NCBI RefSeq assembly: GCF_036365525.1
Contig: NC_090401.1
Span: 31,145,036-31,209,035 of the forward strand
Direction of reading: 5' to 3'
Length of the DNA: 64,000 nt
Source: Heterodontus francisci
Taxonomy: Eukaryota
In this document: piece by piece, positions 440 through 32,274 of the stretch
How the letters are laid out: every line of letters starts with the position of its first letter
Numbering within the stretch: position 1 is the stretch's first letter
The notes under the pieces: model-generated
Databases searched by the model: none
The model's input: only the letters and a program-made list of their open reading frames with translations
What the model was told of the DNA's origin: nothing
Position numbers and translations under genes: made by a program

Positions 440-548
440 GCGCTGAAGAGTCTGTAGATTCAAGAAATGGAAACTCCATTATCAGTTTCGTTTCCTCGGA
501 AATCCACATGATGTCACTGACAGCTCTTCAGCAGAAGCTTTTATAAAT
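440..548 (+). promoter_or_regulatory. Interferon-responsive promoter module C: IRF site, ISRE, overlapping GAS-like site, CRE-like site, TATA
   Basis: GAAATGGAAACT 464-475; AGTTTCGTTTCC 484-495; TTCCTCGGAA (TTC-N4-GAA) 492-501; TGATGTCA 509-516; TATAAAT 542-548. Homologous in reverse complement to 20163-20228 and 31243-31323. Confidence 0.75.
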
Positions 549-1234
549 GCAACAACGTTTAGAGATTTAAAACTTTAGAAGGTGTATGTATGTTGGAGAC
601 AGTTTTTAATTTGCCGCACTGATCTGAAACTAAAGTTGTGGATCAATGATGTCAATAGAAATGAAAACCAGGCAGTTTCAATAACACTGGCAGATCGGCA
701 GTGTTAGATTTACACCCAAGTGGCAAATTGAGAATCAACCCCATTGTGTGTGAACGGGATGTTGGAAACCAGTTGTTCTGACAGCAAGGAGGCCGACAGC
801 TCACTGGATTCAGGCTGGCCCAACGTTGGCCACTGGAGACCGCTGGGCCTGCAGCAAGTTAATCCCAGTAGATTGTCGCAATGGGGATGGAGGGCTGCCC
901 AGTGGCAGTGGCCCGGAAATGGGTGCCGTTCCCTTCTGCTACATGGTTGGCAACCCCACTGTGGATCACGTGTGGCGGGCGACCATTTTACATAGTAGAG
1001 GCAGAGCCCCCCACCACCCCCCCTCCAAATCACATGGCGGGGCGGGATGCGAGCAGTCAGTTACACCATCAGATGACTCTGGAGCAGGTACTGCTGCCAT
1101 ATTTAAAGGCCTGCCAGCCCTGCATTCACACCTGTTTTGGAGTTGTTTGCAGCTTTCAGTGTGCTGCTGAAAATGGTGTTGGATTGACTCCTGGATGACC
1201 ACCACCCCCCAAACTCCCGAGGAGGACACACAAG

Positions 1235-2980
1235 ATGGCTGAGCCAAGACACAGGATGGACCCAGGGTTTAGTGGTGCCTCCCTGCAGATTCTCCTCCAG
1301 GCTGCATGGGAAAGGAGGGAGGTCCTCTTGCCCAGCGATGGCAAGAAGAGGTCCTCTCCCCTGACCAAGCAAGCCTGGACCGAAATAACAGAGGAGGTCA
1401 GCAGCTGTGGGGTCACCCAACACAACTGGGTGCAGTGCCGAAAGAGGGTCAATGACCTCCTGCGTTTGGCCAAGGTGTCTGCTCCATAACTCTCTATTAC
1501 TGAGTGTAAGTGGCTATGCAGGAGGATGTGGGGCATGATGAGGGTGGCACAACCACAGTGATGGCAGAGGGGGTAAGGCATCACTACATCCTGACAGATG
1601 CATGGCTGCATGTTGGCCACAGGCCACCTTCTTTCACAGCTCACCCCCCATTAACTCCCCTGAGAGCGGATGGGAGCATGAGCTATATGTGATGCCCCAA
1701 TAGGAGACAAGGGGCTGACACTAGCAGAACTGTCATGTTGATCACTCTGCGAATTCTTACTATCTCTCTCTTTCCACTTGCAGGACAAGAGGTCCCACAA
1801 CAGGAGAAAGATGGCTCAGTCTGGCAGAGACCTTCCAGATCTACGGCCTCTCACCCCAGCCGAGGAAGAGGCCTTGGAATTGTTAGGGACCAAGGGCAGA
1901 CACACCATATCAGATCGAGAGACTACAGTCTCTACACAAGAGAGTGAGGCTTGGCTTCCATCAACATACGGATCACTTCTGGAGACACACATCACTTATG
2001 GTGGACATGACGAGATCTGCACAGAATAATCCACATGTTTATGTTCTCTCAGGCAAGTCGGCGGTCGCAGGAGATTCAACCAGAAGGGGGACAGCCATCC
2101 ACCTCTGAGGAGGAGGAGCACTCCGAGGATGAACTGTCCCATGACTTTCCTGCACCTTCCACCAGAGCAGAAACCAACACCTCAGTGGGTTTCTGCTTGG
2201 CTGTAGAATCAGGGTCACTAATTGGTGAGAGCACAGCATACATTCCGGAGCAGCTAGCTGAGGCTGAGACAACCGAGGACACTGATAGTCGGATCTGGCC
2301 AGGCCCATGCTGAGCCCCAGTCTGATGATGAGCCTATGGTATTGTCAGCACAGGGCATACTTGAGTTCCAGAGAGAGTAAGGCAACATCTGGCGACGATG
2401 CCAGAGGCTATGAGCGGACGATGGAGGAGTCCATCCGTGCCATGACTGCTGCCATGTCTCAGGCGTATGAGCACATGGCTTCTCCATCGAGAGGTTGGCG
2501 ACCCTCATGGAGGGCCAGATCCTACAGATGCGTGCAGACTTTCACACCACCGCGTTGGCCATGAACTTGATGCAGCAGGGTCAAGGCAAGAGAAGGACAA
2601 GGCGCCTGGAGTCTTCTCCATCTCCTGCTCCTTCTCTAGTGAGCAGGGAGGTTCAAGTGAACCTTGAAAGGGAGAAGGAGAGGCTTACATCCGCAGCTGG
2701 GGGCTCCCCTCAGGGCGCTCTGATTGTGGACACCGGCTCCTCAGCCCCTCTGCCAGTGAGACCACCTCCAGCAGCCTTGAGGCGTGAGGAGGGTTCTGCA
2801 CCAGTGCAGGAAACCTCCTGGCAGCAGGGGCCCTCCAGGCCTCAGGCAGCCAGAGGACAGCCACCAAAGTCATCACAGGCCATGGGGCAGCTTGATCAGC
2901 AGCCTGCCTCCAGCCCAGCAGCTAGCGCAGGGTTCACACCTCATTGGAGCACCCACAAACACGTTAATAAAACCACATAG
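1235..2980 (+). pseudogene. Harbinger Myb/SANT-like DNA-binding protein gene, spliced, frameshifted in its 3' part
   Basis: Exon 1235-1474 encodes FS..L..L..R..L..KQAWTEI..V..WVQCRKRVNDL (Myb/SANT-like). Exon 1784-1943 joins in phase (DKRSHNRR..LTPAEEEALELLG). Third exon from 2053 is acidic and P/S-rich, split over frames. Confidence 0.8.
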
Positions 2981-3205
2981 CTACACTTGAGGATTCATGA
3001 CTGTCAGAAATTTTACGTATTGATTAATTAAAAGTTCATTTGCTCAAATCATTAATGATCATTGTGTGAAAGCCATTTTCCAATAGGCCTTAATTGTGAT
3101 CTGCTGACATTCCCCTTCCCCATTACTGAAATGCCTATTTAACTACAGTCCTCATTAACATATGTTCTCCCATGGGCACAATTGTGGTTTGCAGCTGGGC
3201 GCAAA

Positions 3206-4381
3206 TCAGGGAACACAAATGGAAAGGAGGTGACAGACTACGTGCATCGAGGTGAGTCTTTCTTGGTTTCTCTGTGACTGGGCATCAGGAATGCTGGAAG
3301 CGGCTGATTGTGAGGTTGTCTCTTGTCTCCTTGGCACACAGCTCAATCTGCCTGGCCTCTGGTGCAAGGGCTTCAACATCCAGCACTGCTTGCTCCTTTC
3401 CCTCCTTTGCATCTCATCATCATATATGGCCTCCCGCCTCTGCAGTGCCAGATTGTGCCGAGCACAGCAGACCACCATGATACGCGATACTCTCACTGGG
3501 ACATACTGCAAGGCTCCACTGGAACGATCCAGGTACCAGAATCTCATCTTCAGCAGCCCAATGGCCTACTCAATGATCACTCAGGTGGAGCCATGGCAAG
3601 TGTTGTACCTCTCCTCTGCTGCAGTGCGGAAGCTGTTCAAAGGCATCAGTAGCCATGTCTTTGATGGGTAGCCCTTGTCACCGATAATCCATCCCTGAGG
3701 CAAGCGGTGTCCTGAAAAGCTGTGGCACCGGGACTGTAGACGTGTGTAAGCATCATGGCTGCTTCCCAGGAAGTGGGCACACACCAGCAGGAAATGCTTT
3801 CCTGTTGATTAAGGCAGCTGGATGGTCCGTGGGAACATTGATGCCCATACGCGAGCCGTCTATCACAACTTACACCGACATAAATCCAGTGTTGGCCCCG
3901 AACCTGATGGCCCTCTTGTCCTGACTGTCAGTGTTGGTCTGGTAGTTCATATAGTCACCGGCTCTCTTGAACAGGGCATTTGTCACCTCCTTGATTAAGC
4001 CAATGGGCTTCTGCCTGGGAGACCCCACACATGTTCCCGATGGAACCTGGAAAGATCCTGCTGCAGAAAGTTTTAGTGCCAAAGTGATCATCAGGGCCAT
4101 TGGCATAGGGTGACCCCCCCGCAAATCCCATAGATCACAACTCAACCTACAGCTGTGCATTAGTCTGTGATGGACTCCCTGAAGAGCCGTAGTCTTCACT
4201 GAGAATACCGCACGGACATTTGGAAGTGGCTGATTCGAGACTGGTACACTCTCTTGTGCAGGTGGGCCCTTCTTGGCATGGCCAGCTTCTGATGCTCCCA
4301 TCGAGGAGCTTCACGGGCAGGCACAGCTGACTCTTGGCCCTCCCTCCGTCCGAGGTGCTGTGTCATGCCATGGTGGTCCAA
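3206..4381 (-). pseudogene. Harbinger (HARBI1-like, DDE_Tnp_4) transposase remnant
   Basis: Fragments in different frames: GWIIGDKGYPSKTWLLMPL..AEERYN, MRFWYLDRSSGALQY..RVSRIMVVCCARHN, LKLSAAGSFQ..IKEVTNALF. Multiple frameshifts and stops. Confidence 0.88.
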
Positions 4382-6436
4382 AATTGACAGGGTGTATGAG
4401 ACTCATGCCAGGTAACCTGTGGGCCACCAGCGCACTGTTGATGCAGAGACAACCCTGCCTTGGCAACTGAGCTTTTGACAATTCTCCTGGTGGACTCCGT
4501 GATAGTCCTCAGTACCCACCCTGCTGATAGTCAACCCTCTCATCAAGCAGCAAGGGCGACCAAACATCTCTCACAGCAGTTTGGTTACCCAATACAGCCC
4601 CCGCAAACCCAAGCCCAAGCGCATCCCTCTTGCAGAGCCCCCGAGACCCCAACTCCGCCCCCCTTGCTGAGCATACAGCAACATAGACTGACAATGTCCT
4701 CCGAACCCCCCTCTTTCCCGCTGCAGCATTGTTCATAGCTGCCTCCCTGTCATGGCACTGAGGCCTCTCGCATCGTTGTGGCCGGTGTTTAACTGTCGTG
4801 AACCCGAAGCCGCCCGCTGTCCACTAAATCAAGAGCCAACCTTTAAAATCGAGGTTAATTAGATGTAAATGCATTACAAACAACTGCTCAGCAATTTAAA
4901 ATAGATTCCTGTCATATCAGGGCAGTAATGCTGCCTTGGTCCTTTCCTGCCGCTGGCAAAATCTGGGACCGTTGTCACAACACTGGATTTCCGGATGGAT
5001 GGTTCTGATGCGATTCTCTGTTCCCCCATGCCACCACTCCCACTTTAAAGGGCCGCATTAAATTCTGCCCATGGTGACATTCATTGCAGCTGTGTTGTGT
5101 TTCAATGATTCAATGTCAGTGCATTATTGCAAGCCGTGGCTTGAATGTATGCCCTTTTGGAATATAGTGATGTGAAGCAATGAGAGTTGCAAGCTTGCCT
5201 GAAGGTGTGGCACGGGTGCATAGTGAAGGTGGAATAGGTCAGCTTGCAGCACCTTGTTACATGCAGTATTTTGCCATCAACTTGGTTCATGGTACTGTTG
5301 TATTACCTTGAAGATTCCTTCGACTATTGAGCCTTCTCTATGTTATTCTGGGGTGTTTAAGATATTGTGCAGTGTTGAACCTGTCTGCCACCATCTCCAT
5401 ACCATACCCATACGTCAGCAGGGCACACATTCAAGACTAAAGGATAGGTTCCGGAGATGTGTTCAAAGTTGTGCTAACGTCTGCCTGTAAACCTAAGAAT
5501 GCATTTTGATGACCTCAGCAAATGACATTTGATGGGGTGAAATTCGCCTTGGTCTAACAGTATCGATCTAGAACCTCTTTCTTGCCAAACATTTGGCTTA
5601 AACCAGTATCTCATTAGCACAAATTGCTCTCCCAGTCACTCTGACTTCCCCCTAAGTGTGAGAGAGAAGAAGAGAATTGATTGGAAAAGTTAACACAGGC
5701 ACGGAGCCAATAGAATGGGTGTTTGAGGCATGCAAGTGCTGAAATGATTAATCTACTCGCTTCCCAAGTCTTGGCATTCCATCATTCAGTTATCTGCCCA
5801 TTCTACATGAGATAAGGAGATAATAAAATGGAAGTTTTTTTTAAAAAGCTTGGATGTTAAAAAAAAACTTACTGATTGGCAGTAACCCAAATATAATGTG
5901 AAGAGGATTCCAGTCTTTAGAAACAAGCAAAGGAACTTCTGTGTCTTAAAAAAATAAACACAAGTACAAATACATCTCAAACATGAAAACTCTTCAACTA
6001 GGATCTTAAAACAATCCATCGGTTTGAAAGAAGTTTACCTGGCCATTAAAGCAACCATGAGATTTTCAAAATTGTACATAACAGGGTATACTCCTGTAAC
6101 ACACAATTTAGTTAAAGGCAAAAAAAATAGTCAGAAGTAAATGTAAAAGAAAAACTGATACAATTGCTCATTAATCCAGAATAGAGATAGTGAATGTTTC
6201 ATGGCTAGAATTTTGGCTTGAAACGGGGTGTAGTTGACGATGATGGGAGATTAAAACCTACTGCCAGAGCTTAACTGCTGCATAATATCTTTCACACTGC
6301 TATATTCTGAAAGGCAAAACAGTCACAGAGAAAAGACATAATATTCAGAGCCTTTATTTATTTTCAGTCAGATTCTTCTTCATATACAGCATGTAAAGGA
6401 AAGATGTTCATTATTTTCAGTTGTCTTAAGGCACTT

Positions 6437-9400
6437 TTACTTTCCGTAGCGTAGGATCGAACCTAGGAAAGCACCTGCAGTTCCCAACACAATGTTGGCA
6501 CCTGCAGAGAGTCCAGCGGCCCCTTTAAAGAAAAGAAAAATATAAATGTGAATTAATTGCACACAATATGACATGTCAACAATTTGTTAATAATCAACAA
6601 TTCTTATAATCCAGATCTAAACAGTATCCAGAGGAAAGATCAAAACCCTATTATAACTGATTTTACTGTTAATTTCTTTATTTGTATTTACAATAAAGCC
6701 AACTCATTTATCATTAGCATGTTGTTGAGGTTAAAACATAATAGTATTAACATTTATTGCAAAAGTGCCTTCTCGCTTCTATTAAAACTGTACTGATAAG
6801 TTTCCGAGACAATTGGGTAATATAAAAATTTATTCAGCACTATCATAGATGCCCAGGAATTCAAATACTATCAGGGAGGCTTTAAACAAGAAAGACTGAG
6901 AAATGTTCATTACTTATCACTGAAGCTTACCAGCAGACTGAAGGACAGCCACCAGACTTCCAGCTGCTACACCTCCTCCATTGGCGACAGCTGCTGTAGA
7001 CATCATACTTGATGCAATAGAACTGCCTGCTATTCCAGCGCTGGTAAATCCCACTGCTCCCAGAACCACTGGCGCAGCAACAATGGTTGTAACTGAAGGA
7101 TGAAACATCCACATTTAAACACAACACATATACACACAGGAGCTTAACAATATTGCCTAAAGCCTGATACATACAATTGTAGCATATCAGAATTCTTCCT
7201 GTCTGCAATGATGGTTTATTTCCTTTACAACATTTCAATCCAGTATTTTGCAATATCAATTATATTTATAATAATCCAGATCCAAGATATGCTTCACAAT
7301 TTTCCTCAAGATCCCCTATCTGGAATTTCCACAGGGGTGCTCCGGATTATTTGCTGTAATTTTAGCAGAAAACCTACAGAAATGATACAAATGGCCACTT
7401 GTGCCTTTTCTTCAAGGTTTTTGCTTATATTCAAAAGTTATTGCAGATAATCTGGAGAACTCCCATCAAAATTCTATCGCTCAACCTTGAACAGCACTGA
7501 AGCCGAATAGAGGTAGCAGAATTAAACAGCAGTTCAAGAATAACAGCTACCAACAAATGTATCTCATGATTCATTTTGTGATGCTTGGACTGAAAATTAT
7601 AGAGGAACATCTATCAAATAGTAAAATATTGACTGCTTGCAGCAATCTAATCATACTGTATGTAAAGGTAGTGCTGTAAGTTGTCACATTACGTGCACTG
7701 TGACTGAACTAATATTACTTATTAGAAATTAGTATACGTAAGAAAGTTGTATAGGAGAAATTAATGGGGCTGAAGGTTGATAAGTCCCCAGGACCTGATA
7801 TTCTATATCCCAGAGTGTTAAAAGAGGTAGCTATGGAAATAGTGGATGCATTGGTGATCATCTTCCAAAATTCTATAGATTCTGGAGCAGTTCCTGCAGA
7901 TTGGAAGGTTGCAAATGTCACCTGACTATTTAAGAAGGAAAGGAGAGAGAAAACAGGGAATAACAAACCTGTTAGCCTTACATTAGTCATTGGGAAAATG
8001 CTCGAATCCATTCTAAAGGATGTGATAAATGGACACTTGGATAATAATGATCTGATTGGGAAATCATGTTTGATGAACCCGTTGGGAGTTTTTTTTGAGG
8101 ATGTTACGAACAGAATTGATAAAGGGGAGTCGGTGGATGTGGTATACCTGGATTTTCAGAAGGCTTTTGATAAAGTCCCCCACAGGAGATTGGTTTGCAA
8201 AATTAAAGCACATGGGATAGGAGGTACTATACTGGCATGGATTAAGGATTGGTTAACAGGCAGAAAGCAGAGAGTGGGAATAACTGGCTCATTCTCACGT
8301 TGGCAGGCTGTGACTAGTGGGATACGCGGGGATCAGTGTTTGAGCCCCAGCTCTGCACAATATCTAACATTGATTTGGATGTGGGAACCAAATGTAATAT
8401 TTCCAAGTTCACGGATAACACAAAACTAGGTGGGAATGTGTGTTGTGAGGAAGATGCCAAGTAGCTTCAAGGGGATTTGGACAGACTTAATGAGTGGGCA
8501 AGAACGTGGCAGATGGAATATAATGTGGAAAAATGTGAGGTTATCCACTTGGGTAGGAGGAATAGATGTGCAGAGTATTTCTTAAATGCTAAGAGATTAG
8601 AAGGTGTAGACGTACAAAGGGACCTCGGTGTCCTTGTCAATAAGTCACTGAAAGCTAACACGCAGGTGCAGCAAGCAATTAGGAAGGCTAATGGTATGTT
8701 AGCCTTTATCGCAAGAGGATTTGAGTACAGGAGTAGTAAAATCTTGCTTCAATTGTATAGAACATTGGTTAGACTGCACTTGGAGTACTGCGTGCAGTTT
8801 TGGTCCCCTTACCTTAGGAAGGGTATTATTGCCATAGAGGGAGTGCAACACCAGACTTGTTCCCGGGATGGCAGGACTGTCCTCTGAAGAGAGATTGGGG
8901 AAACTGGGCCTGTATTCTCTAGAGTTTCGAAGAATGAGAGTAATCTCATTGAAACCTACAAAATACTTAAAGGGATAGACAGGGTAGATGCAGCTAAGAT
9001 GTTTCCCCTGGTTGGGGAGTCTCGTACCAGGGGACACAATTTCAAAATAAGGGGGAAGCTTAGGTCAGAGATGAGGAGAAATTTCTTTACTCAGAGGGTT
9101 GTGAATCTTTGGAATTCACTACCCCAGAGGGCTGTGAAAACTCAGTCATTGAGTATGTTTAAAGCAGAGATTGACAAATTTGTAAATACAAGTGACATAA
9201 GGGGATATGAGGATATTGTGGGAAAATGGCATTAAAGTGGATGATCAGCCATGATCATACTGAATGGCGGGGCAGGCTCGATGGGCTGAATGGCCTACTC
9301 CTGCTCCTATGTTCCTATACTGTGATAGTCCCATTGTACACCATAACTTCCTACCGTGTCCTTCCTTCTTTAGTTGATACAGCTGCTGAATTACTTGAAA

Positions 9401-12400
9401 ATAATATATTACATCACTGTTGTCTACTTTAAACATATCAGGGGTGATCTAAACCGGCCCACCCAGCAGAAACTAGGTGGGTGGGAGTTAAAATTGACCA
9501 GGAAACTTACCCAACAGAAATTCATCAGGGATTCACTGATTTGAATTTTAACCTGCTCTACTGAATAGGTGTCAAGAACACAAGTCCAAAGCCAGCTCAG
9601 GCCTTCTTTACATATGCGTGTCAGGTCCTGATGACATCAGGATCCAACTGCAACTTTAACTGCTGTCATGAGCAGCGATACCGTTGTAGATTTTCTGCGG
9701 GGTGAAGAAGGAGCTCCAGGCAGAAGAGGCCCATAGAAATAAAGCGTTTTTGCTTTTCTTGTGAGGCCTAGAGGTGCAGGAGTGCTTTTCCAGACACCGC
9801 AAGGAAATAGTTTGGGCCTCAGTTGACGCAGACTCCTACCAAAATTCTTTCCCCAAAACGAGACCCCTGGGAGACTGCCCTCGAAGTTGATCCTGTCTAG
9901 TTGTCTGTTGGGTGGTCTCTAAACCGCCAATCGAGCTATGGACTGCTAGTTTTTCAGTTTCCTTCTAAGAAATTGGGTTCTGGATCATGCTTTGGTGGTG
10001 TGAGGGTAGGGAGCTGGGGAATAGGAACAGAAGTAGCTGGCGAAAGGGATAAGAAATAAATGGCTATGGCTTCCACTACCCACCGCATCTGAAAATAAAA
10101 ACATATGGGAGCAGAAGAACATAGAGAAACAAGCAAAAAAAGAAAATCAAGTTCTGGCAAGAGATGGAGTAAAAAAGTAGAATGTGAGAGCGATAGAGAG
10201 TGAAATAGCAACACAAATATGACATGGATAGATGCAAGACTATATAGAGTCATAGAGTTATACAGCACAGAAACAGGCCCTTCAGTCCACCGTGTCTCTC
10301 CCGGCCATCAAGCACCTAACTATTCTAATCCCATTTTCCTGCACTTGGCCCGTAGCCTTGTATGCTATGGCGTTTCAAGTGCTCATCTAAATACTTCTTA
10401 AATGTTGTAAGGGTTCCTGCCTCTACCACCTCTTCAGGCAGTGCGTTCCAGATTCCAACCACCCCCTGGGTGAAAAGTTTTTCCTCAAATCCCCTCTAAA
10501 CCACCTGCCCCTTACCCTAAATCAACACCCCCTGGTTATCGACCCCTCTGCTAACGGACAAAGTTTCTTCCTATCTAACCTATCAATGCCCCTCAATTTT
10601 ATATACCTCAATCAGCTGCGCCCTCAGCCTTCTCTGCTCTAAGGAAAACAACCCAAGCCTTTTCAGTCTCTCTTCATAGCTGAAATGCTCCAGCCCAGAC
10701 AACATCCTGGTGAATCTCCTCTGCACCCTCTCCAGTGCAATCACATCCTTCCATAGTGTGGTGCCCAGAACTGTATACAGTACTTCAGCTGTGGCCTAAC
10801 TAGTGTTTTATACAGATAACCTCCCTGCTCTTATATTCTATGCCTTAGCTAATAAAGGCAAGTATCCCATATGCCTTCCTAACCACCTTATCTACCTGTG
10901 TTGCTGCCTTCAGTGATATATGGACAAGTACACCCAGGTCCCTCTGACCCTCTGTACTTCCTAGGATCCTACCATCCATTGTATATGCCCTTGCCTTGTT
11001 AGTCCTCCCAAAATGCATCACCTCACACTCCTCAGGATTAAATTCCATTTACCACTGCTCCGCCCATCTATATCGTCCTGTAATCTAAGGCTTTCCTCCT
11101 CACTATTTACGACACCACCAATTTTCATGTCATCTGCGAACCTACTGAGAGGATTTGAAAATTTGTGTCAGAGCCCCTGCCATCTCCTCCCTTGCCTCAC
11201 ATAACAGCCTGGGATACATCTCATTTGGGCCTGGGGATTTATCCACTGTTAAGCCTGCTAAAACTGCAGAAAAGATTCACAAGGATGTTGCCTGGTTTGG
11301 AGGGCTTGAGTTATAAAGAGAAATTGGATAGGCTGTGTCTGTTTTCCCTGGAGCAAAGAAGGCTGAGAAGGGTCATGCTAGAGGTATATAAAATTATGAG
11401 AGGCATAAATAGGGTAGACAGCCAGAGTCTGTTTCCCATGGTAGGGGTGACTAAAACTAGAGGGCATAGATTTAAGGTGAAAGGGAGGAGGTTTAAAAGG
11501 GATCAAAGGGGTACATTTTTCACACAAAGAATAGTGGGTATTTGGAATGAGCTGCCTGAGGAGGTGGAGGAGGCAAGAACAGTAGCAACATTTAAGAGGC
11601 ATCTGGACAGGTACTTGAATGAGCAAGGCATAGAGGGATATGGAATTAATGCAGGCAGGTGGGATTAGTATAGATAGGCATTATGGTCGGCATGGACGTG
11701 GTGGGCCGAAGGGCCTGTTTCTATGCAGTACGACTCTATGACTTTCAATGCTAATATGTTCAAGTATATCACAATCCCCCTCCCTGATCTCTGCACCTAC
11801 ATTGTCCTTCTCCATAATGAACACAGATGAAAAGTAATCATTTAAAGCCTCACCAATGTCCTCCGGCTCCGCACACAGATTGCCACTTTGGTCCCTAATG
11901 GGCTCTACGCTTTCCCTGATTATCCTCTTGCCCTGAATATAGTTATAAAACGCCTTGGGATTTTCCTTTATCTTGCTCGCCATTGGTTTTTTCATGTCCC
12001 CTCTTCGCTCTCCTAATTACTTTTTTTAAGTACCCCCCTACACTTTCTATACTCCTCTAAGACCTCCACTGTTTCTAGCACTCTGAATCTGCCATAAGCC
12101 TCCTTTTTTTCTTCCTTATCCAATCCTCTATATCCCTTGACATCCAGGGTTCCCTGGACTTGTTGGTCCTATCCTTCACCTTAATGGTTACATGTTGGCT
12201 CTGAACTCTCACTATTTCTTCTTTGAATGACTCCCACTGGTCTGATGTAGACTTTCCTACAAGTAGCTGCTCCCAGCCCACTTTGGCCAGTTTTATCATA
12301 TTGAAATTGGCCTTCCCCCAATACAGTACCTTTATTACCAGTCCCTTTTTGTCCTTTTCCATAACTGCCTTAAATCTTAGCGTTACGGTCACTATCCCCG

Positions 12401-14612
12401 AAATGCTCCCCCACTGATACTTCTACCACTTGTCCGGCTTCATTCCCTAGGACTAGGTCCAGTACTGCCCCTTCTCTTGTAGGACTTTCTACGTGCTGGC
12501 TCAAAAAGTTCGCCCGTATGCATTTTAAAAATTCCACCCCCTTTTAGCCTTTTGCACTAAGACTATCCCAGTTGATATCGGGGAAGTTGAAATCCCCTAT
12601 TATTACCCTATTATTTTTACACCTCTCAGAAATTTGCCCATATATCTGCTCCTCTATCTCTCCCTGGCTGTTTGGAGGACTGTAATATAAAAAGAACTTG
12701 CATTTATATAACACCTTGCATGACCGCAGTACTTCCAAAAGTGGTTAACAACAAATGAGGTACTTTTCTGAGATGCAGTCAGTGTCATAATGTAAAAAAT
12801 GCAGCAGTTAATTTTCACACAGCAAGGTCCCACTAATATCAATGAGGTAATGACCAGACAATCTGTTTTAGTGATGCTAAAGGATAAATGTTGTCCAGGA
12901 CACTGGGAGAACTGCCCTGTACTTCTTTTAATTGAACCATGGGATTTTATACATTTTTTGAAATTTATTAATTCAAGGATGTGGACATGGCTGGAATGGC
13001 CAGCATTTATTGGCCATCCTTAACTGTTCCTGAGAAGGTGGTGGTGAGCTGTCCTCTTGAACCACTGCAGTCCATGTGCTGAAGGTACTCCCACAGTGCA
13101 ATTAGACAGGAAGTTCCAAGATTTTGACCCAGTGACCATGAAGGAAAAGTGATACAGTTCCAAGTTAGGATGGTGTGTGATTTGGGAGGGGAACTTGGAG
13201 CTGTTGGTGTTCCCATGAGCCTGCTGCCCTTGCACTACAAGGTGGTAGAGGCTGGGTGTTTGGAAGGTGCTGTCTAAGGAGCCTTGGTGAGTTGCTGCAG
13301 TGCATCTTGTAGATGGTACACACGGCGACCAAGTTGTTCTGGTGGTGGAGGGAGTAAATGTTTAAGGTGGTGGATGGGGTACAGATCAAATGGGCTGCTT
13401 TGTCATAAACGTTGTTGAGCTGTATGAGTGTTGTTAGAGCTGCACTCATCCAGGCAAGTGGAGAGTACTCCAACACACTCCTGACTTGTGCCTTTTAGAT
13501 GGTGGACAGGCTTTGGGGAGTCACGAGGGGAGAGTTACTCACCACAGAATTTCCAGCCTCCGACCTGCTCTTGCAGTCACAGTATTTGTATGGCTGGTTC
13601 TGTTAAGTTCCTTGTCAATGATAACCACAGAATATTGATGGTAGGGGATTCATTGATGGTAATAATATTGAATAACAAGGGGAGTTGGTTAGACTGTCTC
13701 TTGTTGGAAATGGTCATTGTTTGGCACTTGTGTGGCATGAAAGTTACTTGCCAATTATCAGCACAAGTCTGGATGTTGTCCAGGTCTTGCTGCATTTGGT
13801 TATAATTTGCTTCAATATCTGAGAGATTGAGAATGCAATTAACATTATGCAATCACTAACAAACATCCCGACTTCTGACCTTACAATGGAGTGAAGATCA
13901 TTGATGGAGCAGCTGAAGACGGTTGGGCCTAAGCCATTACCCTGAGTGATGTCTGGAGGCTCAGATGATTTGTCTCGAACAGCCACAAACATCTTAATTT
14001 GTACTAGGTAACACTGAAGCCAGTGGAGATTTCTCTCTGAATTCCCATTGATTTCAATTTTACTAGGGCTCCTTGATGCTGCACTCGATCAAATGTTGCC
14101 CCGATGTCAAGGGCAGTCACTCTCATCTCATGTCTAAAATTCAGCTTTTTTGTCCGTATTTGAATCAAGGCTGTAATGAGTTCTGGAGCTGAGGGTCCTG
14201 GTGAAACCTCAATTCAGTATCAGTGAGCAGGTTATTGGTGATCAAACTCGGTTTAACAGCTCATCTGAAAGATGACACCTCCGACAATTCCGCACTCCCT
14301 CAGTACTGCAAAGATGTATCAGCCGAGGTTATTTGCTCAAGTCTCTGGAGTGGAAATTGAACATACGACCTTCTGACTCCGAGTCGATATCCTCCGACTA
14401 ACAATGAGCAATGCAATGGGAGATCTACTAATTTCCTTTGTAAATTTTTGAGAGCATTGTCACACTTTGTGTAATGTGCAATACTGCTGCTAGATCCACT
14501 TCAGTAGTCCCCTTCCTAGGATGTTTTTGTCTATTATTTAAAAATATATATATTTTGCAGTCAAATAGTGCTTACCTGCACCTATAGCTGCAGCTCCAGC
14601 TATCCACAACAT
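6437..14612 (-). CDS. ifi27l2: ISG12 family protein, IFI27/IFI27L2-like (gene B, copy 1), 94 aa; coding exons 14612-14576, 7092-6931, 6522-6437
   Basis: GT-AG exons of 37+162+86 nt with phase-1 junctions give [97 protein letters not shown]12 motif GFT.AGIA..S.A..MMS..A.ANGGGV.AGSLVA.LQS. AATAAA on minus strand at 6353-6358. Family certain, orthology tentative. Confidence 0.88.
7715..9320 (+). mobile_element. CR1 LINE, 5'-truncated (RT domain and 3' end), in gene B intron
   Basis: [68 protein letters not shown], with stops and frameshifts, followed by the CR1 3' tail. Confidence 0.93.
10243..12683 (-). mobile_element. CR1 LINE with internal deletion (endonuclease to 3' tail)
   Basis: [39 protein letters not shown] on the minus strand. 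3' tail near 10243. Interrupted by 11266-11743. Confidence 0.9.
11266..11743 (+). mobile_element. CR1 3' fragment nested in inverted orientation inside the minus-strand CR1
   Basis: [37 protein letters not shown] plus gactctatgact tail. Host element resumes at ~11744. Confidence 0.88.
12684..14385 (-). mobile_element. tRNA-derived Deu-domain (SacSINE1-like) SINE, split in two by the LINE at 12960-14245
   Basis: aacttgcatttatataacacc tail near 12695. Head half ctcggtttaacagctcatctgaaagatgacacctcc..gaccttctgactc at 14247-14380. Family assignment from recall. Confidence 0.65.
12960..14245 (-). mobile_element. Non-LTR retrotransposon (CR1/L2 group) RT 3' fragment
   Basis: [47 protein letters not shown]. 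Degenerate. Confidence 0.85.
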
Positions 14613-14773
14613 GATAATCTGCTAATTTGCACACTGTAAACTTAAAAAAAGTCTTTCATTAGAGGGGAATAAATAAATAAATAATAAAAACCAGTAGATG
14701 TATTTGAATTTCCAAAAGGGAATTGATAAAGTGCCACATAAAAAGGTTATTACACAAGATAAGAGCTCATGAT

Positions 14774-15984: not shown

Positions 15985-17005
15985 ATTGGCGAACCGAATA
16001 GAAACCTTTGGTGGGTCTGATAAAAGGAGGCAGCCTTCTGACAGCTGGGGGGTCCTCCTGATCGGTCAACCTGAGCCCGATGGAGGGCCACCCCTGAAGC
16101 CCCAACTACCCCCATCGCCCAACACGCACCACCCCCACCCTCCACCCCTTGTCGCCTATCCGACCTCCCTTGCCTCACCGGGGCCCGACTGATTGCCCCT
16201 GCAATCTTCAGCTGGGTTGCAGTGCCAACAGTGGCCATCGCTCCCACTGATTGGCCGGCAGCTCCATTAGGCAGCACTTCCTGCCTCAATGAGGTGGAAG
16301 TCTTGCCCAAGACCAATTAAAGGCCTGGGGACCTGAAAGTCCGGTCTGGATCCCATGCCTGGTGGAGGCGGGATCACCACCAACTCTTGCATTGGCGGAC
16401 GGCTTCCCCATGCCCACCATAAAATTCCAGCCAGCACCTCAAGACAGTTCAACACTCCACTGGAGTGTCAGCTTTGAGTTTTGTGCTTGGAGTGGAACTT
16501 CAACCCACAACCTTCTGACTCAGAGGAGAGAATGTTACCAACCAAATGCAGCCGACACCTAATCCTAAATCCTAATATGACACAAGGTTGTAAGTTAGTA
16601 ATTGTTTAAGATGAAAGCTGCTGGTACTGAGGAGATGCCAGCCTGCTGATTGGCGATTGGCCAGCAGCTCCTGGAGGCGGGACTTCCTGCCCCAGAAGGG
16701 TGGCAGACCAAGCCAATGCCAATTAAGGGCATGAGCCACCCAAAAATTGTTGTGTGGTTTCCAGACCCGGCGGAGCTGGTCTCACCCCTCCCCCCCCCAC
16801 CGGCCAGAATTTTACATTGGGCTGGAAGCCCCGCCCACTGGCCAAAAAGTCAGGGGTGAGCCTCCCTCTGCCGGACCTGGAAGCCAAGGGTACGAGATGG
16901 GAACAGCAGCACCCGCCCCCATTCCCCCACCTCTCACTCAATTTTATGTCCTCGCCCGACAGCCTGCTCCTGCGGGGTGGTGTAAAACGCCAGCCCCCAA
17001 CAATT
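15985..17005. mobile_element. Cluster of GC-rich MITE fragments and a SINE head fragment (~16440-16560)
   Basis: cataaaattccagcc end near 16430. Internal motifs (gattggcc..cagct, ccaattaa.ggc) shared with 14774-15316 and 18274-18788. Confidence 0.5.
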
Positions 17006-17024
17006 AGGCCAGATTTGAAATTAG

Positions 17025-17588
17025 TGGGTTAACACTTCTGTTGAAATTAGTGGAGAGGGGGATTTCATCCTCTAGTATCTCCAGTCATGGTCTCTGCGCC
17101 TTTCTTTGCTGAGTCGTCAACATCATAAATGTTGTTGTAGTTGCAGTAAACCTTGGGTGCGGCCTCATCGCTGTAATGGAATACAGTCGGGCCATCGCTC
17201 CCTGGTCCCAGAGAGGACAGCGCCAGCCATCGCCTTCAACATCGCGCAAGTCACGACCCAATTAACAAAAATACAAATGGAAATACACTGGTGTTTTATA
17301 ATAAACTGGTGTGTACTTGCACTATCATTTTCATAACAATCACTTAAAAACATCACTAAAAATGCAATCTGCTGAACAACTATTGAATCACTATATCAAA
17401 TTTATCTTAAATATTTATATCTAGCTTCAATTTTAAATATTAAATCTTATCTTAAATATTAAATATACCTGTTGTATTTTGTAGTTGTCCAATGTCAAAC
17501 TTGAACGTCAGCTGTTCTCTATTGGCAGCAGAAGCGGCTGTGCAGAAAATATAGTAAACTGAAAGAAGTCCGCTGGGCCCTAATGCTC
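17025..17588. repeat. Diverged paralogous non-coding block, homologous to 34088-34479 (and 1-292)
   Basis: Shared ordered anchors gggttaacacttctg, ccagccatc, ctaaaaatgcaa.ctg, tgcagaa.atatag.aaactga.ag.agtc..ctggg.cctaatgctc. Confidence 0.75.
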
Positions 17589-17599
17589 GTGGTGTGGAA

Positions 17600-17760
17600 C
17601 TCAGTCATTGAGTATGTTTAAAGAAGAGATTGACAGATTTCTAAATATCAATGACATAAGGGTATATGAGGATAGTGTGGGAAAAACACATTGAAGTGGA
17701 TGATCAGCCAAGATCGTACTGAATGGCGGGGCAGGCTCAATGGGCTGAATGGCGGGGCAC
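17600..17760 (+). mobile_element. CR1 3' end fragment
   Basis: Closely matches 9140-9290 (ctcagtcattgagtatgtttaaag..gatcagcca..tgaatggcggggcaggctc). Confidence 0.85.
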
Positions 17761-18102: not shown

Positions 18103-18957
18103 AATTGTGTTTGATCGGAGGTAAATGATCTGCATTATACAAAGAAATCACAAAAGATAGAAACTTATATGACCCAAAGAAAATACATACAGGAAAATCA
18201 CCAGAAAAATACAAGAAGAAAGAAGCAGAAAATATAAAGTGTGACAAGATCCTTGCGATTCTTTAGCACTCTTGAGACTGAGTTTTATGGGCTCCCTCTG
18301 GATGGGAACGTAGGCGGTGGAGTGCCCGTCGCCTTCCTGACCCCTTGGCATTTAGTCCAGGCAGCCATTTAACTGCCTGTAGTCAGGGTCCCTTTAAAGA
18401 CCCTTTAAGGATGGTGATCTCTTCCACAAGAGCTGCTGGCTAATCAGAGGGCTGACAGCTCAGTAGTAATGGCAATGCCACTGGAAACAGTGGCCACTGC
18501 TGTTACTACAGGAAGACCAGGACCAGGACCAGCGCTGGAGCCCCGGACCACAGGTGAGTGTAGTGGGCTCGCCAGGACAGCAGGAAGAGGCCCTTAAGTT
18601 AATTGGCCACTTCAAGGCATCAATTGGCCCCTGGGCGGGAAGGCTCTCATTGGCCTTCCTCGCCCTTGGACTAAAGTCCAAGGTGTTGGGAAGGCGACGG
18701 GTACTCCACTCCCCGCCTACCCATGCAATTTTATTGACCCCCTCCCATCTCCATTCCCATCCCGAGGGGGCCCATAAAACTCAGCCCCATGAGTGCTAAA
18801 GAATAGCAAAGATCTTGTCACTCCTTATATTCTGTGCTTTCTTTTTCTTATATTTTTCGGAGATTTTCCTGTATGCATTTACTTTGCATCACATAAGTTT
18901 CTATCTTTTTTGATTCCTTTGTATAATGCGGATCATTTACCTTGGATCAAATAAATT
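18103..18957. repeat. Foldback: ~170-bp inverted arms with a long-TIR MITE (18274-18788) at the centre
   Basis: 18103-18273 is the diverged reverse complement of 18789-18957. MITE TIRs CTGAGTTTTATGGGCTCCCTCTGGATGGGAA / TTCCCATCCCGAGGGGGCCCATAAAACTCAG. Confidence 0.85.
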
Positions 18958-19099
18958 GCTGCACTTTTCTTGATTCCTTCCCACCAGTGTGGGTACCCAG
19001 GATGGTACCGTGGTCTAAGCAGTATCTTCCAAAAGTTTAGCATTACTTTACTTTGTTCCTCTCTGCCCCTGTACATAAAACATGAAATAAATGTTTCTG

Positions 19100-19620
19100 G
19101 CCCCTCTCCCACCCCCAATAACCATACAATTCATTCCTTGCCCTCTCCCCCTACAGAATACTTACCTGGCGTACCTGATCTTCCCCCTCCACTTTTCATA
19201 AACTGTGAACTTTACCCCTTCCCAGAAGCCCCTACACCAATTAGAGAAGTGTGACCCTTTTCCACCAACTCCCCCCGCACTGAAACCCTTACCTGCTCCC
19301 CCACTCCCCACCAGTGTTACACCTCGTATCCCCAGATGGGGATCTGAAGGTGCTGGAGTGCCAGCCACTGGCAGCAATATTGCTACAGAGCAGGGACGGC
19401 AGGAGCAGGTAAGTAATTAAATTGTTGATTACAAAAATTTAAATATTGAAATTTTGAACCCTTGCCAAGCGGTGGGGGGCCACCACAAGACCTCGCCACT
19501 GCTGGCAATATGAGGCCAGACCTTCCCGACGTCGAGGCCCCTGGCGGGCTTCTCCCGGAGGCAATTTCCAGTATCCCCCGCCATGACCCCCGATATCGAT
19601 GGTGCTGTAAAATTCAGCCC
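19100..19620. mobile_element. Harbinger-type MITE, right part
   Basis: Ends in GTAAAATTCAGCCC at 19620. Left boundary not resolved. Confidence 0.55.
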
Positions 19621-20089
19621 AAAGAGTGGGCAGCAGGTGCTTATATAAATCATCTCATCACATCTTTACCTACTCCGTTATGATGACAAATGTCCTTGGG
19701 GGAAGAATACAAACCATGTCCTATGTCATTGAGTTATATCCCTCAACAAAACTATCTGGTGGCATTTGCACTTTGCCTGCTCGTGATGCTCTCAAATGTC
19801 TCGTTATATGACAAGTCTGTGTAGGCCAAATAAAAACTAAGAGAAAGAGAAACAGACCGGGGAAAGAGTAAGAAATACAGCGGGAAAGAAAAAAGTCCAA
19901 TGGGTCTGGAAAAATGAGAGAGAAGCAAAGATCAGGTGGCAGAGGACTTCTGGGCAATACCGCAGGAGATCCACTAGTTACAAAGTACTGAAACTTTCCG
20001 GTGAACCCAGACCTGCGGGGATCCTAGAAAATATACAGAAAAAACAAACTACCGGATAGTTGGCAACTTGTGTATTTACACTATTTACT

Positions 20090-20228
20090 AAATTTAAAGT
20101 GACGCTGTCAACCTGGAACGGGGAAGTGAAACTGATCTTCAGTGTAAAATCTGATCCCTTCAAGCTGTTAGTGATGCAATCCGATTTCTGAAGAAACGAA
20201 ACTGAATCCATGTAGTTTCAATGTCCTG
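20090..20228 (-). promoter_or_regulatory. Probable interferon-inducible promoter of gene B
   Basis: GGAAGTGAAACT (Ets-IRF composite/ISRE) 20122-20133; TGATGCAAT (C/EBP-ATF site) 20172-20180; TTCTGAAGAA 20186-20195 overlapping GAAACGAAACT ISRE 20193-20203; AGTTTCAAT 20214. The gene B ATG exon has a splice acceptor at 14634, so a non-coding upstream exon is expected. Confidence 0.72.
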
Positions 20229-20829
20229 TTCAAACAGTGGAGATCACACAATGAAGTAAAGTTCATTTTTACCGCCATGTTTACTCTCTAAATTTGCTCT
20301 GTGGTTGCAGTGTTTAAGGAGCTGGCCTGATTCCAGCTTGTTGAAATCAACAATTCCTGATTTAACTCTTCAACGATTTCTTCCCTTTGCTGGAGAGTGA
20401 GCTGCAGAGGAGAGAAAAAGAAACAAGAAAGGGGAACAAAACAAGAAAGATAGAAAAGAAAAGGAGATAAACAGTCATCTTCACACTGCACTGAATGCTG
20501 TAGTACAGAGTCCATTTTCATGCCATGCAATATTTGATATCATTGATAGACACTAATGGTGTGACTGTTAATGATTCAATAGTTCAGATAGTTAGCTCTT
20601 ATCAACCATTCAATTGTTACTGGTAATAGGGCAAAGCACTAGTCTATTTCCAGCTTTAAAATGGAGGGAGAGAATTTCCACAGGGCTGGATGACCTCCCC
20701 CCCACCCTCTCGATGGACCCCACCCGCCACCCCCCCCCCCCACCACCCGCCATACTGGGGCCCAGCCAATTGACCCAGCGAGGCCCCACACACTTACCTT
20801 TTCTGATTAAGAACTGATTAAGATCATCC

Positions 20830-21318
20830 AAAGCTCTTCTGCTGAGGTCCTAACTCACACCAAGTTCCGTTTGCTCATCATCCCCATGCTCACTGACCTA
20901 AATTGGTTCCTGGTTAAGCAACGCCTCGATTTTAAAATCTCATCCTTATTATCAAAAGCCTCCATGACCTTGCCCCTCCCTAGCTTTGTAATCATCTCCA
21001 TCCCTAAAATCCTCTGAGACATCTCTGCTCCTCCAATTCTGGCTTTTTGTGCATTCCTGATTTTAATCACCCCCACCACTCGTGGCCGTGCCTTCAGCTG
21101 CCTAGGCCCTAAACTCTGGAATTCGTTCCCTATATCTCTCTGACTCTTTATCGCTCTTTCTTCCTTCAAACCTACTTGTTCGACCAAGCTTTTAGTCATC
21201 TGCCCTAATATCTCTTTATGTGGCTCAGTGATGTCAAATTTTATTTGATGACACTTCTGTGAAATCCCTTGGGAGGTTTTATTTTGTTGAGGGAGATATA
21301 TAAATACAACTTGCTGTT
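20830..21318 (+). mobile_element. L2 LINE 3' fragment
   Basis: Encodes a P.LTDL.W.LV.QRLDFKI-type C-terminus, followed by the tatataaatacaa..tgttg L2 tail. Confidence 0.75.
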
Positions 21319-25555: not shown

Positions 25556-26401
25556 TGTAACAACTCGGTGAGAAAGGTGACGAGGGGTCCCTCTCAGTCT
25601 TCACCTGGTCTTACTGTAACAGGGTTTAATTTTAAATACACAGTGTTTGAGCTACCCCTTGGTGAATCCTTGTTCACCCCTTTCCAATTATAAGGCAAAG
25701 AAACCAGCGCAAACAGGCTTTCTTAGGTTTAAAGAAAAAAAGGTGAAATTTTATTAAACTTGGAGGTTTTAAAACACAAACACTAATTCGGTTAACGCCT
25801 ATGAATACACGACGTGCCCACGCTAGCATGCATACATGCAAATAGAGACAGAGAAGAGCAGAAGAAAAATAAAATGGATAGGTTTGAGGCAATATCTGAA
25901 GAGTTGTTGTTATAGTTCTTCCAGCTCACTGTCGAGTCCTTGATTATAGGTAGATCTTGCTTTTCGTTGGGCTCCAGTATTCTTCTTAAACCTAGTTCAC
26001 TGTAGGTGACCTTTCTCTCTTGGGGTTCATGTGTCTTCAGTGGGTTTTGGAGTTCCGCGAGAAAGAGATGGGAGCAGACAGGCAGGAGAGGAGGTCTGCT
26101 TCAGTCCAGGAGCATTCTGCTTTTGCCAGTTCAAACACTGCAACAGCCAGTTAGTTATGTGACTAACTGGCCTGGCCATGTCAGTTTGTGGATCGAATTG
26201 AAGCAGGGAATAGCTCCTTTGTCTACGAGCACTGTCTGTTAATCTGTAAATGTATCTTTCCAGCCAGGGGCCTGGCAACCCCTTGTCACAGGTCTTCTCT
26301 TTTTCTCAGCAACAATTTGAAATTTAATGTCCATGTGGCAAAAATAATAAGCCACATTGTTGCCAGTTTGGGGGGGGGGGGGGGGGGGGGGCTGCATGAC
26401 A
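25556..26401. mobile_element. Solo LTR-like element
   Basis: TGTAAC...TGACA termini. Colinear with 31352-32143. No clean TSD. Confidence 0.7.
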
Positions 26402-26778: not shown

Positions 26779-29700
26779 TTAGGGCTCATCTTCAGAACTC
26801 TGAATAAGCTCTTTAGCAGCACAGCCAGTGGCAGCACCAGCACTTCCTACTATAGCAGCACCAGCAGTAGAGAGTCCAGCAGCTCCTTCATGAAGAAAAG
26901 AACATATATTAATCCTTACAAATATGTAGCAATATTTAGAACACATTCGTTAAACTTTATAAAACTGCCTCCATTCCCACTCTGAGAGAATCTGTTTATC
27001 CTGTGCTATGAACCATTCTTCAAAAAAAATAAAATGCACAGCCAAGAAACTATTCAGGCCTTTGATCTTATTTATTTTATTTATTGATTTAGAGATACAG
27101 CACTGAAACAGGCCATTCGGCCCACCGAGTCTGTGCCGACCAACAACCACCCATTTATACTAACCCTACAGTAATTCCATATTCCCTACCACCTACCTAC
27201 ACTAGGGGCAATTTACAATGGCCAATTTACCCATCAACCTGCAAGTCTTTGGATGTAGGAGGAAACACCCAGCAAAAACCCACGCGGTCACAGGGAGAAC
27301 TTGCAAACTCCGCACAGGCAGTACCCAGAATCGAACCCGGGTCCCTGGAGCTGCAGTGCAAACCACTGCGCCACTGTGCTGCCCTTGCTAATATAAAGGC
27401 TGCTGAGTAAGTCTTCTCTCCTGAATGGCCATCCAGTTTTCCCCTAATTTGTGCATTAAAAAGTTATTTCAAAATACAAACTACAGAATAGAGCTTTTTG
27501 TAGTGACTTTGCTGATCAGTTTCACTCTATATTAAACAAACATAGCAGCACCAGAGTTTTATTATGACACTAGTTCACCAATATTAGCCATTTAAGCAAT
27601 CACTATCTCACCCACAGCCAAGACTGATAACTTCCTGTCTGAGAAACCACGGAGCCCTGCCCCCACACAAACTTCACCACTTTCTATGTTTATACATGGA
27701 AGGATGACTTAAAGGTGTTGGACAAGTGATTACATTAAGATCAATCTTCATAACTTTTCCTCAATTTGATTTAAAAGAAAACATGGAATCTTACCAATAG
27801 ACTGGAGGGTTGCGACAACACCACCAGCTGCTACACCCCCTCCATTAGCGACTGCAGCCACAGACATCATTTTTGCTCCCAAGGATCCAGCTGCTATTCC
27901 AGCACCAGTGAAGCCAGCTGCACCAACAACAACTGGGGCAGCAACTACTGCAGCAGCTGCAAAAGTAGAATAAAGTCAGTTGATAAGGGAACTAAAAATT
28001 TGCTTGGTGATACAGCACCCCGTTTAGGCTCTTGGCTGTAGAGATCACAGCTCCAACAAATCCAAAAATGGCATGGGAAGAAATGGAGCAAAGGGGTTTG
28101 CCATGACCCTGGCAGCCTTTCAAAAAGAAAGGAGCATGACCTTCAGTTAGCAAGAGTATAAATTACACCATGATGTCTTTGTTTTAAAAGAGCACATCAT
28201 CATGTCACATGTTTGCATTTTAAAGTTGCAAATTTGAAAAAGAAAGGTGACTTTGCAATGAAATACTCAACCCTGATACTCAGAATGGACCATAAAAAAC
28301 GTACAGCACAGGAGGCCATTCAGGCCATCATGCCTGTGCTGCCTCTTTGAAAGAAAAGTCATGCTTAGTTCCACACCTCCACTTATTGTCCATAACCTGC
28401 AAGTTCCTCATCCTCAACTATCTGTCCATCTCCCTTTTAAAACTATTTATGGAATTAGCTTCCACCGCCTTTTCAGACAGAGCATTCCAGATTCCCACAA
28501 CTCAGTGAAAAAAAAAATCTCTCCTCATCTTCCCACTAGATCTTTGGCCAATGATTTGAAATCAATGACATCTGGTTATTAACCCAATATTTTTTTCTAC
28601 TTTATTTGCTTCTTTAACCACCTTATTAACTTGCCCTGCCACCTTTATGAATTTGTGTATATGAACAACAAAGTCTCTCTGTTCATCTACACTCACTCAA
28701 TCTAGGCTGGCAATTTAGTGCAGTGCTAAAGGACGGATGAATTGTCAGAGATGCCATTTTTCCAAGGAGATGTAAAACCAAGCTGCCATCTGCTTATTCA
28801 GGTGGATGCAGCAAAAGATGCCATGGCACTTTTTGAAGAATAGCAGGAGTTCTTCTGGTGTTCTGGGCAACATTCCTCAATCAGTAAATACCACTGAAAA
28901 TAGATCATCTAGTTATTTTTTCCATTTGCTGTTTGTTGGACCATCCTGTGCACAAATTGGTTGCCACATTTCCTGACAGAGCAGCAGTGACTGCACATAA
29001 TCAAGCAATTGTGAAGCAATATCGGGACATCCTGAGAAGGTGTATATCAATGCAATTTCTTTTACCTGCTCCTCCTGCAACCCAGGCAACTGTCGACCAA
29101 TCTATAAATACATGGGCAAAACAGAAATATTAGACAAGTATTCAACGGTGAGACAAGCCACTCATTTGATAACTTTCTTGACTGCTAAGTCAGTAATGTA
29201 GGAAAGCAGTCAAGTTACAACCAGCATTTTATTAGTTTGCAGACTACTTGTGTAATTGTTTCCTCTCAGCATGAGCACTAATAATGTCAGGGGCACATTC
29301 ATATACAATCCTACAGATCCCAAGCTCAAGGGTCCCTGCTAAATATGGGGGTCCCTCCAGGGTTAGCAAACTATGTCCAATAAGCATCTCCCTGTCCACA
29401 ATCCCATTGGACAAGAAATCTCCTGGCCACGCCCATGAGTCTCAGTGCTGGAGAGCTGCAGTCCAGTTTTCTCCTTTCAGGTAGGTTTTAATGAATGGGG
29501 ATGAGGGGGGAGGGAGTTGTTCAGGGTTGCTGAAGGACCCTAAAGAGCCCTAAGAATTCTTAATTGGTCTCTGATTAAGCTATTTTTATATTACTTACTT
29601 CTAGGCTATTGGCACCAGTTCTCAGGCAGCTGAAGGCAACAGTGTAGCCTTGCCGGAGTTGCAAAGGCTGGTGATTGGGAGGACCTGGTTTTAAGAAAAA

Positions 29701-31077: not shown

Positions 31078-31242
31078 TTTTCCAATATTTTCAAGGAAGA
31101 CTGATACAAGTATTGTAGATTTCAGTAATAGCTGGAACACAATAGGACCTTCCTGCACAGATCAACACAAGAAGCAATTTCAATTAAAAAGGTTACAAGG
31201 GAAGTACTGACAGTGCTGTGTAATAACCTCATCTGGTAGCAG

Positions 31243-31323
31243 ATTTATAAATTACAGGTAGAGATGGTTCAAATTGTTATCGGAAAAGCTCGGTTTCATG
31301 TTTTGTCTACAGTAATCTTCAGT
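31243..31323 (-). promoter_or_regulatory. Gene A proximal promoter (TATA and a single IRF-like site)
   Basis: TATAAAT on minus strand at 31243-31249, AAACATGAAACC at ~31292-31303. The tctacag..tcttcag anchor is shared with the reverse complement of 440-475. Confidence 0.55.
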
Positions 31324-31351
31324 GAAATTATAATTCTTCACTCTTAAAATG

Positions 31352-32143
31352 TGTTACAACCAAGTGAGAAATGTGTCCAGGGGTCTGTTACTATCTTCAT
31401 CTGGTCTTATTGCAACAGGGTTTAATTTTAAACACGGTTTTGATCTCCCCTTTGTGAATCCGTGTTCACAACTTTCCAACTATAAGGCAAAGAAATGAGC
31501 ACAAACAGGCTTTCTGTGGTTTAACGAAGAAAGATGAAATTTATTAAACCTTAAACTTGAACTCTAATACAGTTAACACCTACGGATATACAAATACCCA
31601 CGCAATACACATATGCAAATAGAGACAGAAAAGAGCAGAAGAAAAGATAAGTAGAACAGTTTGAGACAATATCTTGTTACAGTTTCTCGAGCTCGCTGTA
31701 GTCCTTGATTGAATATATGGTCTTGTGTTTCATTGGGGCCCAGTATTCTTCGTAAACCTTATTCACATAGGAGATTCTGAGTTTACGTATCTTCACAAGA
31801 TTCAGTTCTGTGGGAAAAAGAGATTGAGGCAGGCAGACAGGAGAGGAAGTAATTCTTGCTTCAGTTCCAGAAGAGATCTTCACTTCATGAGCACAGAGCT
31901 TTGTCTTTTCAAAGTTTTGCGTTTCCAGTTTAAAGCTCCCCTGGTTGGCCAGCAGGTGGTCACGTGACCGATTGGTTTGACCAGGTCTCTTCCGTGCATT
32001 GGGGCAGGGACTGGTTCCTTTGTTTCAACACTGTCTGCTACTATGCAAATGTCCTTCCAGTCAGGGCTTGCAATTTTAAGTTATTGTTCAAGTGGTGAAA
32101 TAATGTGTGCCTCAGTCTTGGCAGGTGGGGGGTTTGCCTGATA
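31352..32143. mobile_element. Solo LTR with 4-bp TSD (Gypsy-like)
   Basis: AATG|TGTTAC...CCTGATA|AATG. Same family as 25556-26401. Confidence 0.78.
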
Positions 32144-32274
32144 AATGATTGTAGATAAAAACTTTATTCTTAGTAGGTTACATCAGTGGCTAGTTCTAAT
32201 AAACATGTAGTCATGTAGCTGCTGTCAGAGGTGGTGTTTCCTTATGCATTCCTGAGATATGGGAAATGCTGGAA

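Follow-up and report, generated by a model that had tools for sequence, protein, structure and literature searches.

Genes of the ISG12/IFI27/IFI6 family (FAM14, PF06140) are known from tandem clusters. In zebrafish, eight tandem isg12 genes are described, six of them IFN-inducible, and the same study counts ISG12 as one of the families in which duplication has led to the greatest expansion (bioRxiv 10.1101/693333). The locus described here resembles the known clusters in its same-strand tandem genes, in their expansion by duplication and in the ISRE consensus sites located upstream. It differs from the zebrafish cluster in containing four paralogue types, two of which make up a 99%-identical five-copy array, in the orientation of the upstream module, which varies between the paralogues, and in that the inducibility of its genes is only predicted.

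Domesticated Harbinger Myb-like genes, namely NAIF1 and MSANTD1-4, are described as single-copy genes that are under negative selection and keep their synteny across vertebrates (PMC9392472). A Myb/SANT gene with the same domain source (PF13873) is present at the locus. Unlike NAIF1 and MSANTD1-4, it sits within a complete decayed element, has many genomic relatives and diverges like them. A literature search retrieved no paper on this locus.

Organisation of the ISG12 cluster

The window, by which we mean the whole stretch of 64,000 nt that was analysed, contains two copies of a 34.2-kb unit with an identity of 99%. About five copies of this unit, with identities of 99.1-99.7%, are found in the surrounding 264 kb. 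Coordinates are those of the window unless noted otherwise. The genome search with PF06140 yielded 12 matches, all of them over the cut-off and within the cluster region. They correspond to five copies of gene A, five copies of gene B and the single genes D and Z, located at 106.4 kb and -112.7 kb, respectively. Every one of the 12 matches lies on the minus strand, in agreement with the statement of the first-pass annotation that no plus-strand ISG12 exons are present. The PF06140 scores place the genes A, B, D and Z in the ISG12/IFI27 family.

Gene A (26779-31152, minus strand) consists of five coding exons with the ATG at 31077 (PF06140, E 7.6e-21), and gene B (6434-14636, minus strand) of three coding exons encoding 94 aa (PF06140, E 9.5e-22). 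On either side of the array lies one more divergent ISG12-like gene, D or Z; their conserved exons, located on the minus strand at the contig coordinates 31251389-31251556 and 31032238-31032447, respectively, are open and have normal splice sites. The last exon of gene Z was found ~0.9 kb beyond the conserved exon. Seven runs, none of them recorded as RNA, were guessed to be RNA, and four of these (X1 to X4) were compared with the window; they are represented by contigs only, which show neither strand nor start. Run X3 comes from a related organism, and the other three match the window sequence closely. All four introns of gene A, as well as the last intron of the second gene B copy, appear as joints in each of the four runs.

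The approximately five tandem two-gene 34-kb ISG12 units occupy ~31.06-31.23 Mb (window coordinates -84 kb to +85 kb) and represent a very recent amplification or homogenisation, or possibly an assembly effect. The 5′ block of gene B (16885-17590) in the internal units shows 75-90% identity to the outermost copy, against 99% in the rest of the unit, which is a sign of an older duplication that predates the recent one. A frameshifted processed SEC61 gamma copy (L020:8400-8700, minus strand; PDB match, E 3.4e-14) interrupts the outermost gene B at its exon-1a donor; the insertion is in sense orientation, and the donor region is apparently duplicated on both of its flanks. Two related solo-LTR-like repeats, ~73% alike, lie at 25556-26401 and 31352-32143. 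One such repeat sits in the predicted 5′ intron of gene A. A TATA-like site directly downstream of this repeat, at ~31250, might provide the gene with an alternative start. The value of the locus for annotation is modest and lies in an ISG12 cluster with four paralogue types and a very recent five-copy array.

The ISRE module and its paralogues

The module considered here, M_A, extends from 461 to 525 and contains a TTC-N4-GAA motif at 492-501. It had been aligned in the first-pass annotation to the reverse complement of 20163-20228, and this inverted paralogy was reproduced with 49 of 67 positions identical and a score of 57. No other segment of the unit 701-34187, on either strand, matches M_A better than 20163-20228, and the score was reached by 0 of 60 shuffles. 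When the 13-bp ISRE core was kept fixed, 1 of 2000 shuffles reached the score; with a 22-bp core fixed, 27 of 2000 did so. These counts indicate that the similarity extends past the ISRE and is not confined to its core; confinement to the core was the outcome that the annotation itself had named as speaking against its claim. A 23-bp pattern common to both modules occurs eight times in the 6.0-Gb genome, always within the cluster, and the reversed control gave no occurrence. The anchors that M_A was said to have in common with the gene A promoter could not be upheld. The similarity to the gene A proximal region (31160-31352) has a score of 30, which 142 of 2000 full shuffles reached, and this candidate was rejected as not significant. 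Comparison of the sequence downstream of M_A with that downstream of the left-flank module described below, or with exon 2 of gene A, revealed no similarity.

ISREs function in either orientation. Two sites in M_A match the ISRE consensus, one on the minus strand (464-475) and the other on the plus strand (484-494). A scan of 264 kb with this pattern gave 20 matches, 16 of which lie inside modules of this cluster. Next to the module, at 538-549, lies a TATA box that can be read both ways, as TATAAATG on the plus strand from 542 and as TATAAAAG on the minus strand from 545. The first-pass annotation regarded M_A as facing the plus strand with the TATA box at 542. This box is indeed present, but the same letters form a TATA box on the minus strand, where the second ISRE is located as well, and the polarity of M_A cannot be read from the sequence. 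According to the alignment, neither paralogous module has kept the TATA box of M_A.

The second module, M_left (20071-20228, minus strand), contains two ISRE-like sites. It was initially taken as gene B's own upstream module, but it is native to the left flank of the array. A copy at -79.6 kb precedes the first gene A on its left side and belongs to the flank that was copied into each unit; there the module points toward gene Z, at a distance of 33 kb from the conserved exon of that gene. A duplication junction close to a LINE piece at 17593-17756 places M_left upstream of the internal gene B copies. Unit 1 lacks ~18607-21232 (~2.6 kb), including the 20163-type module. In unit 2, left of the window, two of the three differences in 1-739 (739 bp) fall in the plus-strand ISRE (489) and the TATA box (544) of M_A. 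Through the duplication, internal gene B copies have come to lie downstream of a left-flank module, and ISREs are being lost from single copies. An exon-like stretch was noticed on the minus strand at 19980-20040, just downstream of the 20163 module; it has a pyrimidine tract, an AG and then GTAACT and may represent a 5′ exon, either of gene Z or of the internal gene B copies.

The third module is located upstream of the outermost gene B (99385-99540) and faces the plus strand. It matches M_left with a score of 64, reached by 0 of 2000 shuffles. After it comes a small repeat that also stands next to M_A, at 593-687 (79% identity over 95 bp), where it is part of a dispersed, MITE-like repeat at 593-744. 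The direct match between M_A and the outermost-B module is weak (score 38, reached by 290 of 2000 core-fixed shuffles), and therefore the paralogy of these two is based on their common flanks and on the match of each of them to M_left. Of the four ISG12 paralogue types, three (Z, A and B) have a module upstream of them. Upstream of gene D, no module was found within 47 kb, and a search for further block or module homologues near the genes D and Z gave nothing above background.

The candidate 5′ region of gene A

A block at 14-292 on the minus strand aligns to a segment upstream of gene B (17259-17588), without a change of orientation, with 206 of 337 columns identical and a score of 147. It is a candidate for the core promoter and the non-coding exon 1a of gene A. 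The gene B copy of the block occupies 17201-17590 on the minus strand, with the donor at ~17468, and the outermost gene B has a further copy upstream of it, at 92.0-92.9 kb. All six matches of the block lie inside the cluster, so it is not a dispersed repeat. On the minus strand the block carries a TATA-like site (257) and a CAG/GTA donor (177), the latter kept in all three copies. The outermost gene B is preceded by the same combination of block, module and repeat, and this layout is therefore regarded as the duplicated 5′ flank of the minus-strand ISG12 genes A and B. M_A lies 0.3 kb upstream of the conserved 5′ block of gene A.

A candidate non-coding exon 1b of gene A was located on the minus strand of the second unit at 34058-34157, with a canonical donor at 34058 and an acceptor at 34157; its first-unit copy lies just left of the window. 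In run X3 this exon is connected to the ATG exon of gene A by the joint 31151->34061 at a depth of 299, compared with 434 for the coding joints. The joint was seen in one of the four runs only, that of the related organism, and its ends are inexact because both sides have eight letters in common. The first-pass annotation described M_A as an orphan at 3.4 kb from gene A. This can no longer be maintained, as gene A is likely to have 5′ non-coding exons 0.3-0.6 kb from the module: M_A is separated from the donor at 177 by 284 bp and from exon 1b by 491 bp. M_A is thus placed at the 5′ end of a gene of the PF06140 family, as expected of an ISRE-type promoter or enhancer.

The second-unit copy of block and module (34374-34712) is covered at 34374-34695, from a point near the donor into the module, by one X3 contig with 17 other letters and three gaps in 323. 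The M_A region is thus kept at ~94% in the related organism. The right end of this contig lies 37 bp below the minus-strand TATA box, which is a weak hint at a start site. The bin 34412-34918, which comprises the module and the sequence downstream of it on the plus strand, has a depth of 0 in X1, X2 and X4 and of 16.5 in X3. For the bin 33905-34411 the depths are 5.5 (X1), 2.3 (X2), 0 (X4) and 83.8 (X3); both sets of values come from contigs that are only guessed to be RNA, and the gaps in cover are given no weight as evidence. Run X1 has unspliced contigs at 32128-32908 and 33288-34231 with depths of 8.5-9.8, which resemble its contigs in other gene A introns. A joint between the donor at 177 and exon 1b is absent among the joints listed. 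The joint 31151->34061 is not listed in the three closely matching runs, so gene A may also start nearer to its ATG, in which case M_A would be an enhancer at 3.5 kb.

We propose that M_A is a cluster-specific paralogous ISRE module that probably serves as the interferon-responsive promoter or enhancer of gene A, and that the neighbouring Harbinger element, an old insertion that is broken, is a likely bystander. The paralogy and the position of the module, one RNA joint between exon 1b and the ATG exon, and the decay of the transposon are observed. Factor binding, induction, the start site and the use of the donor at 177 are inferred. ISGF3/IRF proteins would bind the two opposed ISREs, and minus-strand transcription would start either ~30 bp below the TATA box at 545 or from the TATA-like sequence at 257. 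In this transcript, two non-coding exons, 1a (ending at donor 177) and 1b (34157-34058 in the second unit), would precede a splice to the ATG exon at 31152. Alternatively, gene A may use a nearer start, with M_A acting as an enhancer 3.5 kb off. Against the proposed promoter stands the fact that a transcript from 515 would carry seven upstream ATGs. The first-pass annotation had mentioned an element kept as an enhancer for gene A as a fallback. This is now the best-supported reading, and it is stronger than was thought at the time, since gene A seems to have upstream non-coding exons that adjoin M_A. M_A is likely to be an ordinary ISRE promoter or enhancer that serves an ISG12 gene.

The Harbinger insertion and alternative readings of the module

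PIF/Harbinger DNA transposons carry two genes, encoding a transposase and a Myb-like protein, and terminal inverted repeats (TIRs). The element at ~891-5070 shows these features: a Myb/SANT gene (PF13873) and a DDE_Tnp_4 transposase gene (PF13359) lie on opposite strands, a TIR ending at 5070 marks the right end, and copies are dispersed, with 35 of the 40 matches listed falling outside the array. The closest other copies are ~75-80% identical. Unlike in active PIF/Harbinger elements, the left TIR is eroded and both genes are disrupted, as in an inactive copy. The transposase remnant (3323-4400, minus strand) contains stops and frameshifts (PF13359, E 1.2e-5). The 5′ part of the Myb/SANT gene (1235-2108, plus strand) agrees with its earlier description: the ATG lies at 1235, the first two exons (1235-1474 and 1784-1943) are open and in phase, and the spliced frame of 151 aa ends at a stop near 2108. 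This early stop results from the loss of the family exon-3 acceptor. The encoded domain is intact (PF13873, 37.8 bits against a cut-off of 21.7, E 1.9e-9).

Exons 1 and 2 are open and in phase up to the stop (151 aa) in all five array copies, which differ by ~1% and are not independent, but in only one of 13 other copies that span them. The pN/pS value of these exons, calculated on 114 codons, is 0.57; for 12 other copies the values range from 0.33 to 0.89, with a median of 0.555. Purifying selection relative to dead copies is therefore not apparent in this comparison, which has low power to reveal a recruitment that happened recently. The reference was the majority sequence of 15 other copies, of which the 12 with at least 100 scorable codons were kept and three shorter ones were left out. 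The divergence from the family is 0.087 and 0.128 for the exons and 0.073 for intron 1. The exon-1 donor reads GTGTCT instead of the family GTGAGT, and a family TATA-like site at ~1100 is retained. The joint of exons 1 and 2 is absent among the 15 joints listed, with 141 further joints existing, and the cover of the element is low (bin means 0-81) and indistinguishable from that of other copies. The Harbinger element is an old dead insertion that shows no sign of recruitment.

The headline interpretation of the first-pass annotation, the promoter of a lost third ISG gene that now drives the Myb/SANT gene, is not supported, although the observation behind it was largely confirmed. Positive support for it is missing: there is no plus-strand ISG12 remnant, the polarity of M_A is not assignable, the Myb/SANT gene has its own TATA-like site at ~1100 and its exons diverge like dead copies. 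That M_A was exapted and renders the truncated 151-aa Harbinger Myb/SANT DNA-binding protein interferon-inducible is therefore very improbable. The open exons of the array copies, the PF13873 domain above the Pfam cut-off and the repeated domestication of Harbinger Myb-like genes in vertebrates (PMC9392472) would fit this reading; the pN/pS value equal to that of dead copies, exons no less diverged than intron 1, decayed splice signals, a nearer TATA-like site of the element's own and the non-independence of the five copies argue against it. If true, it would be a rare young case of a Harbinger Myb domain wired to interferon signalling, and nothing found points there. It is just as hard to believe that the ISRE pair and the two-way TATA box form a bidirectional interferon switch, with gene A leftward and a spliced 151-aa Harbinger Myb/SANT mRNA rightward, amplified fivefold in an early recruitment.

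A bidirectional interferon-responsive promoter that serves gene A and sends plus-strand RNA into the dead Harbinger element as a functionless by-product is unlikely, yet the least improbable of the rival readings. It would account for the two-way TATA box and the opposed ISREs, and donor-like sites at 579-585 together with the lack of AATAAA/ATTAAA in 550-2200 would permit such RNA. The 15 ATGs that lie from 570 onward before that of the Myb/SANT gene at 1235, the weakened exon-1 donor and the lack of positive RNA evidence weigh against it; moreover, it is compatible with our proposal for gene A and adds no function. We give little credence to the reading that M_A once was the promoter of a plus-strand gene, now lost, and survives as a relic without a target. 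The orientation of M_A relative to the genes, opposite to that of M_left, and the two unit 2 differences in the ISRE (489) and the TATA box (544) would fit this reading. Yet the genome search gave minus-strand ISG12 exons in all cases, the same orientation recurs upstream of the outermost gene B, and the region is conserved in the related organism. Two further decayed Harbinger copies, ~68-70% identical to the window copy, were found left of the array, at -89.0 to -84.4 kb and at -107 to -104 kb.
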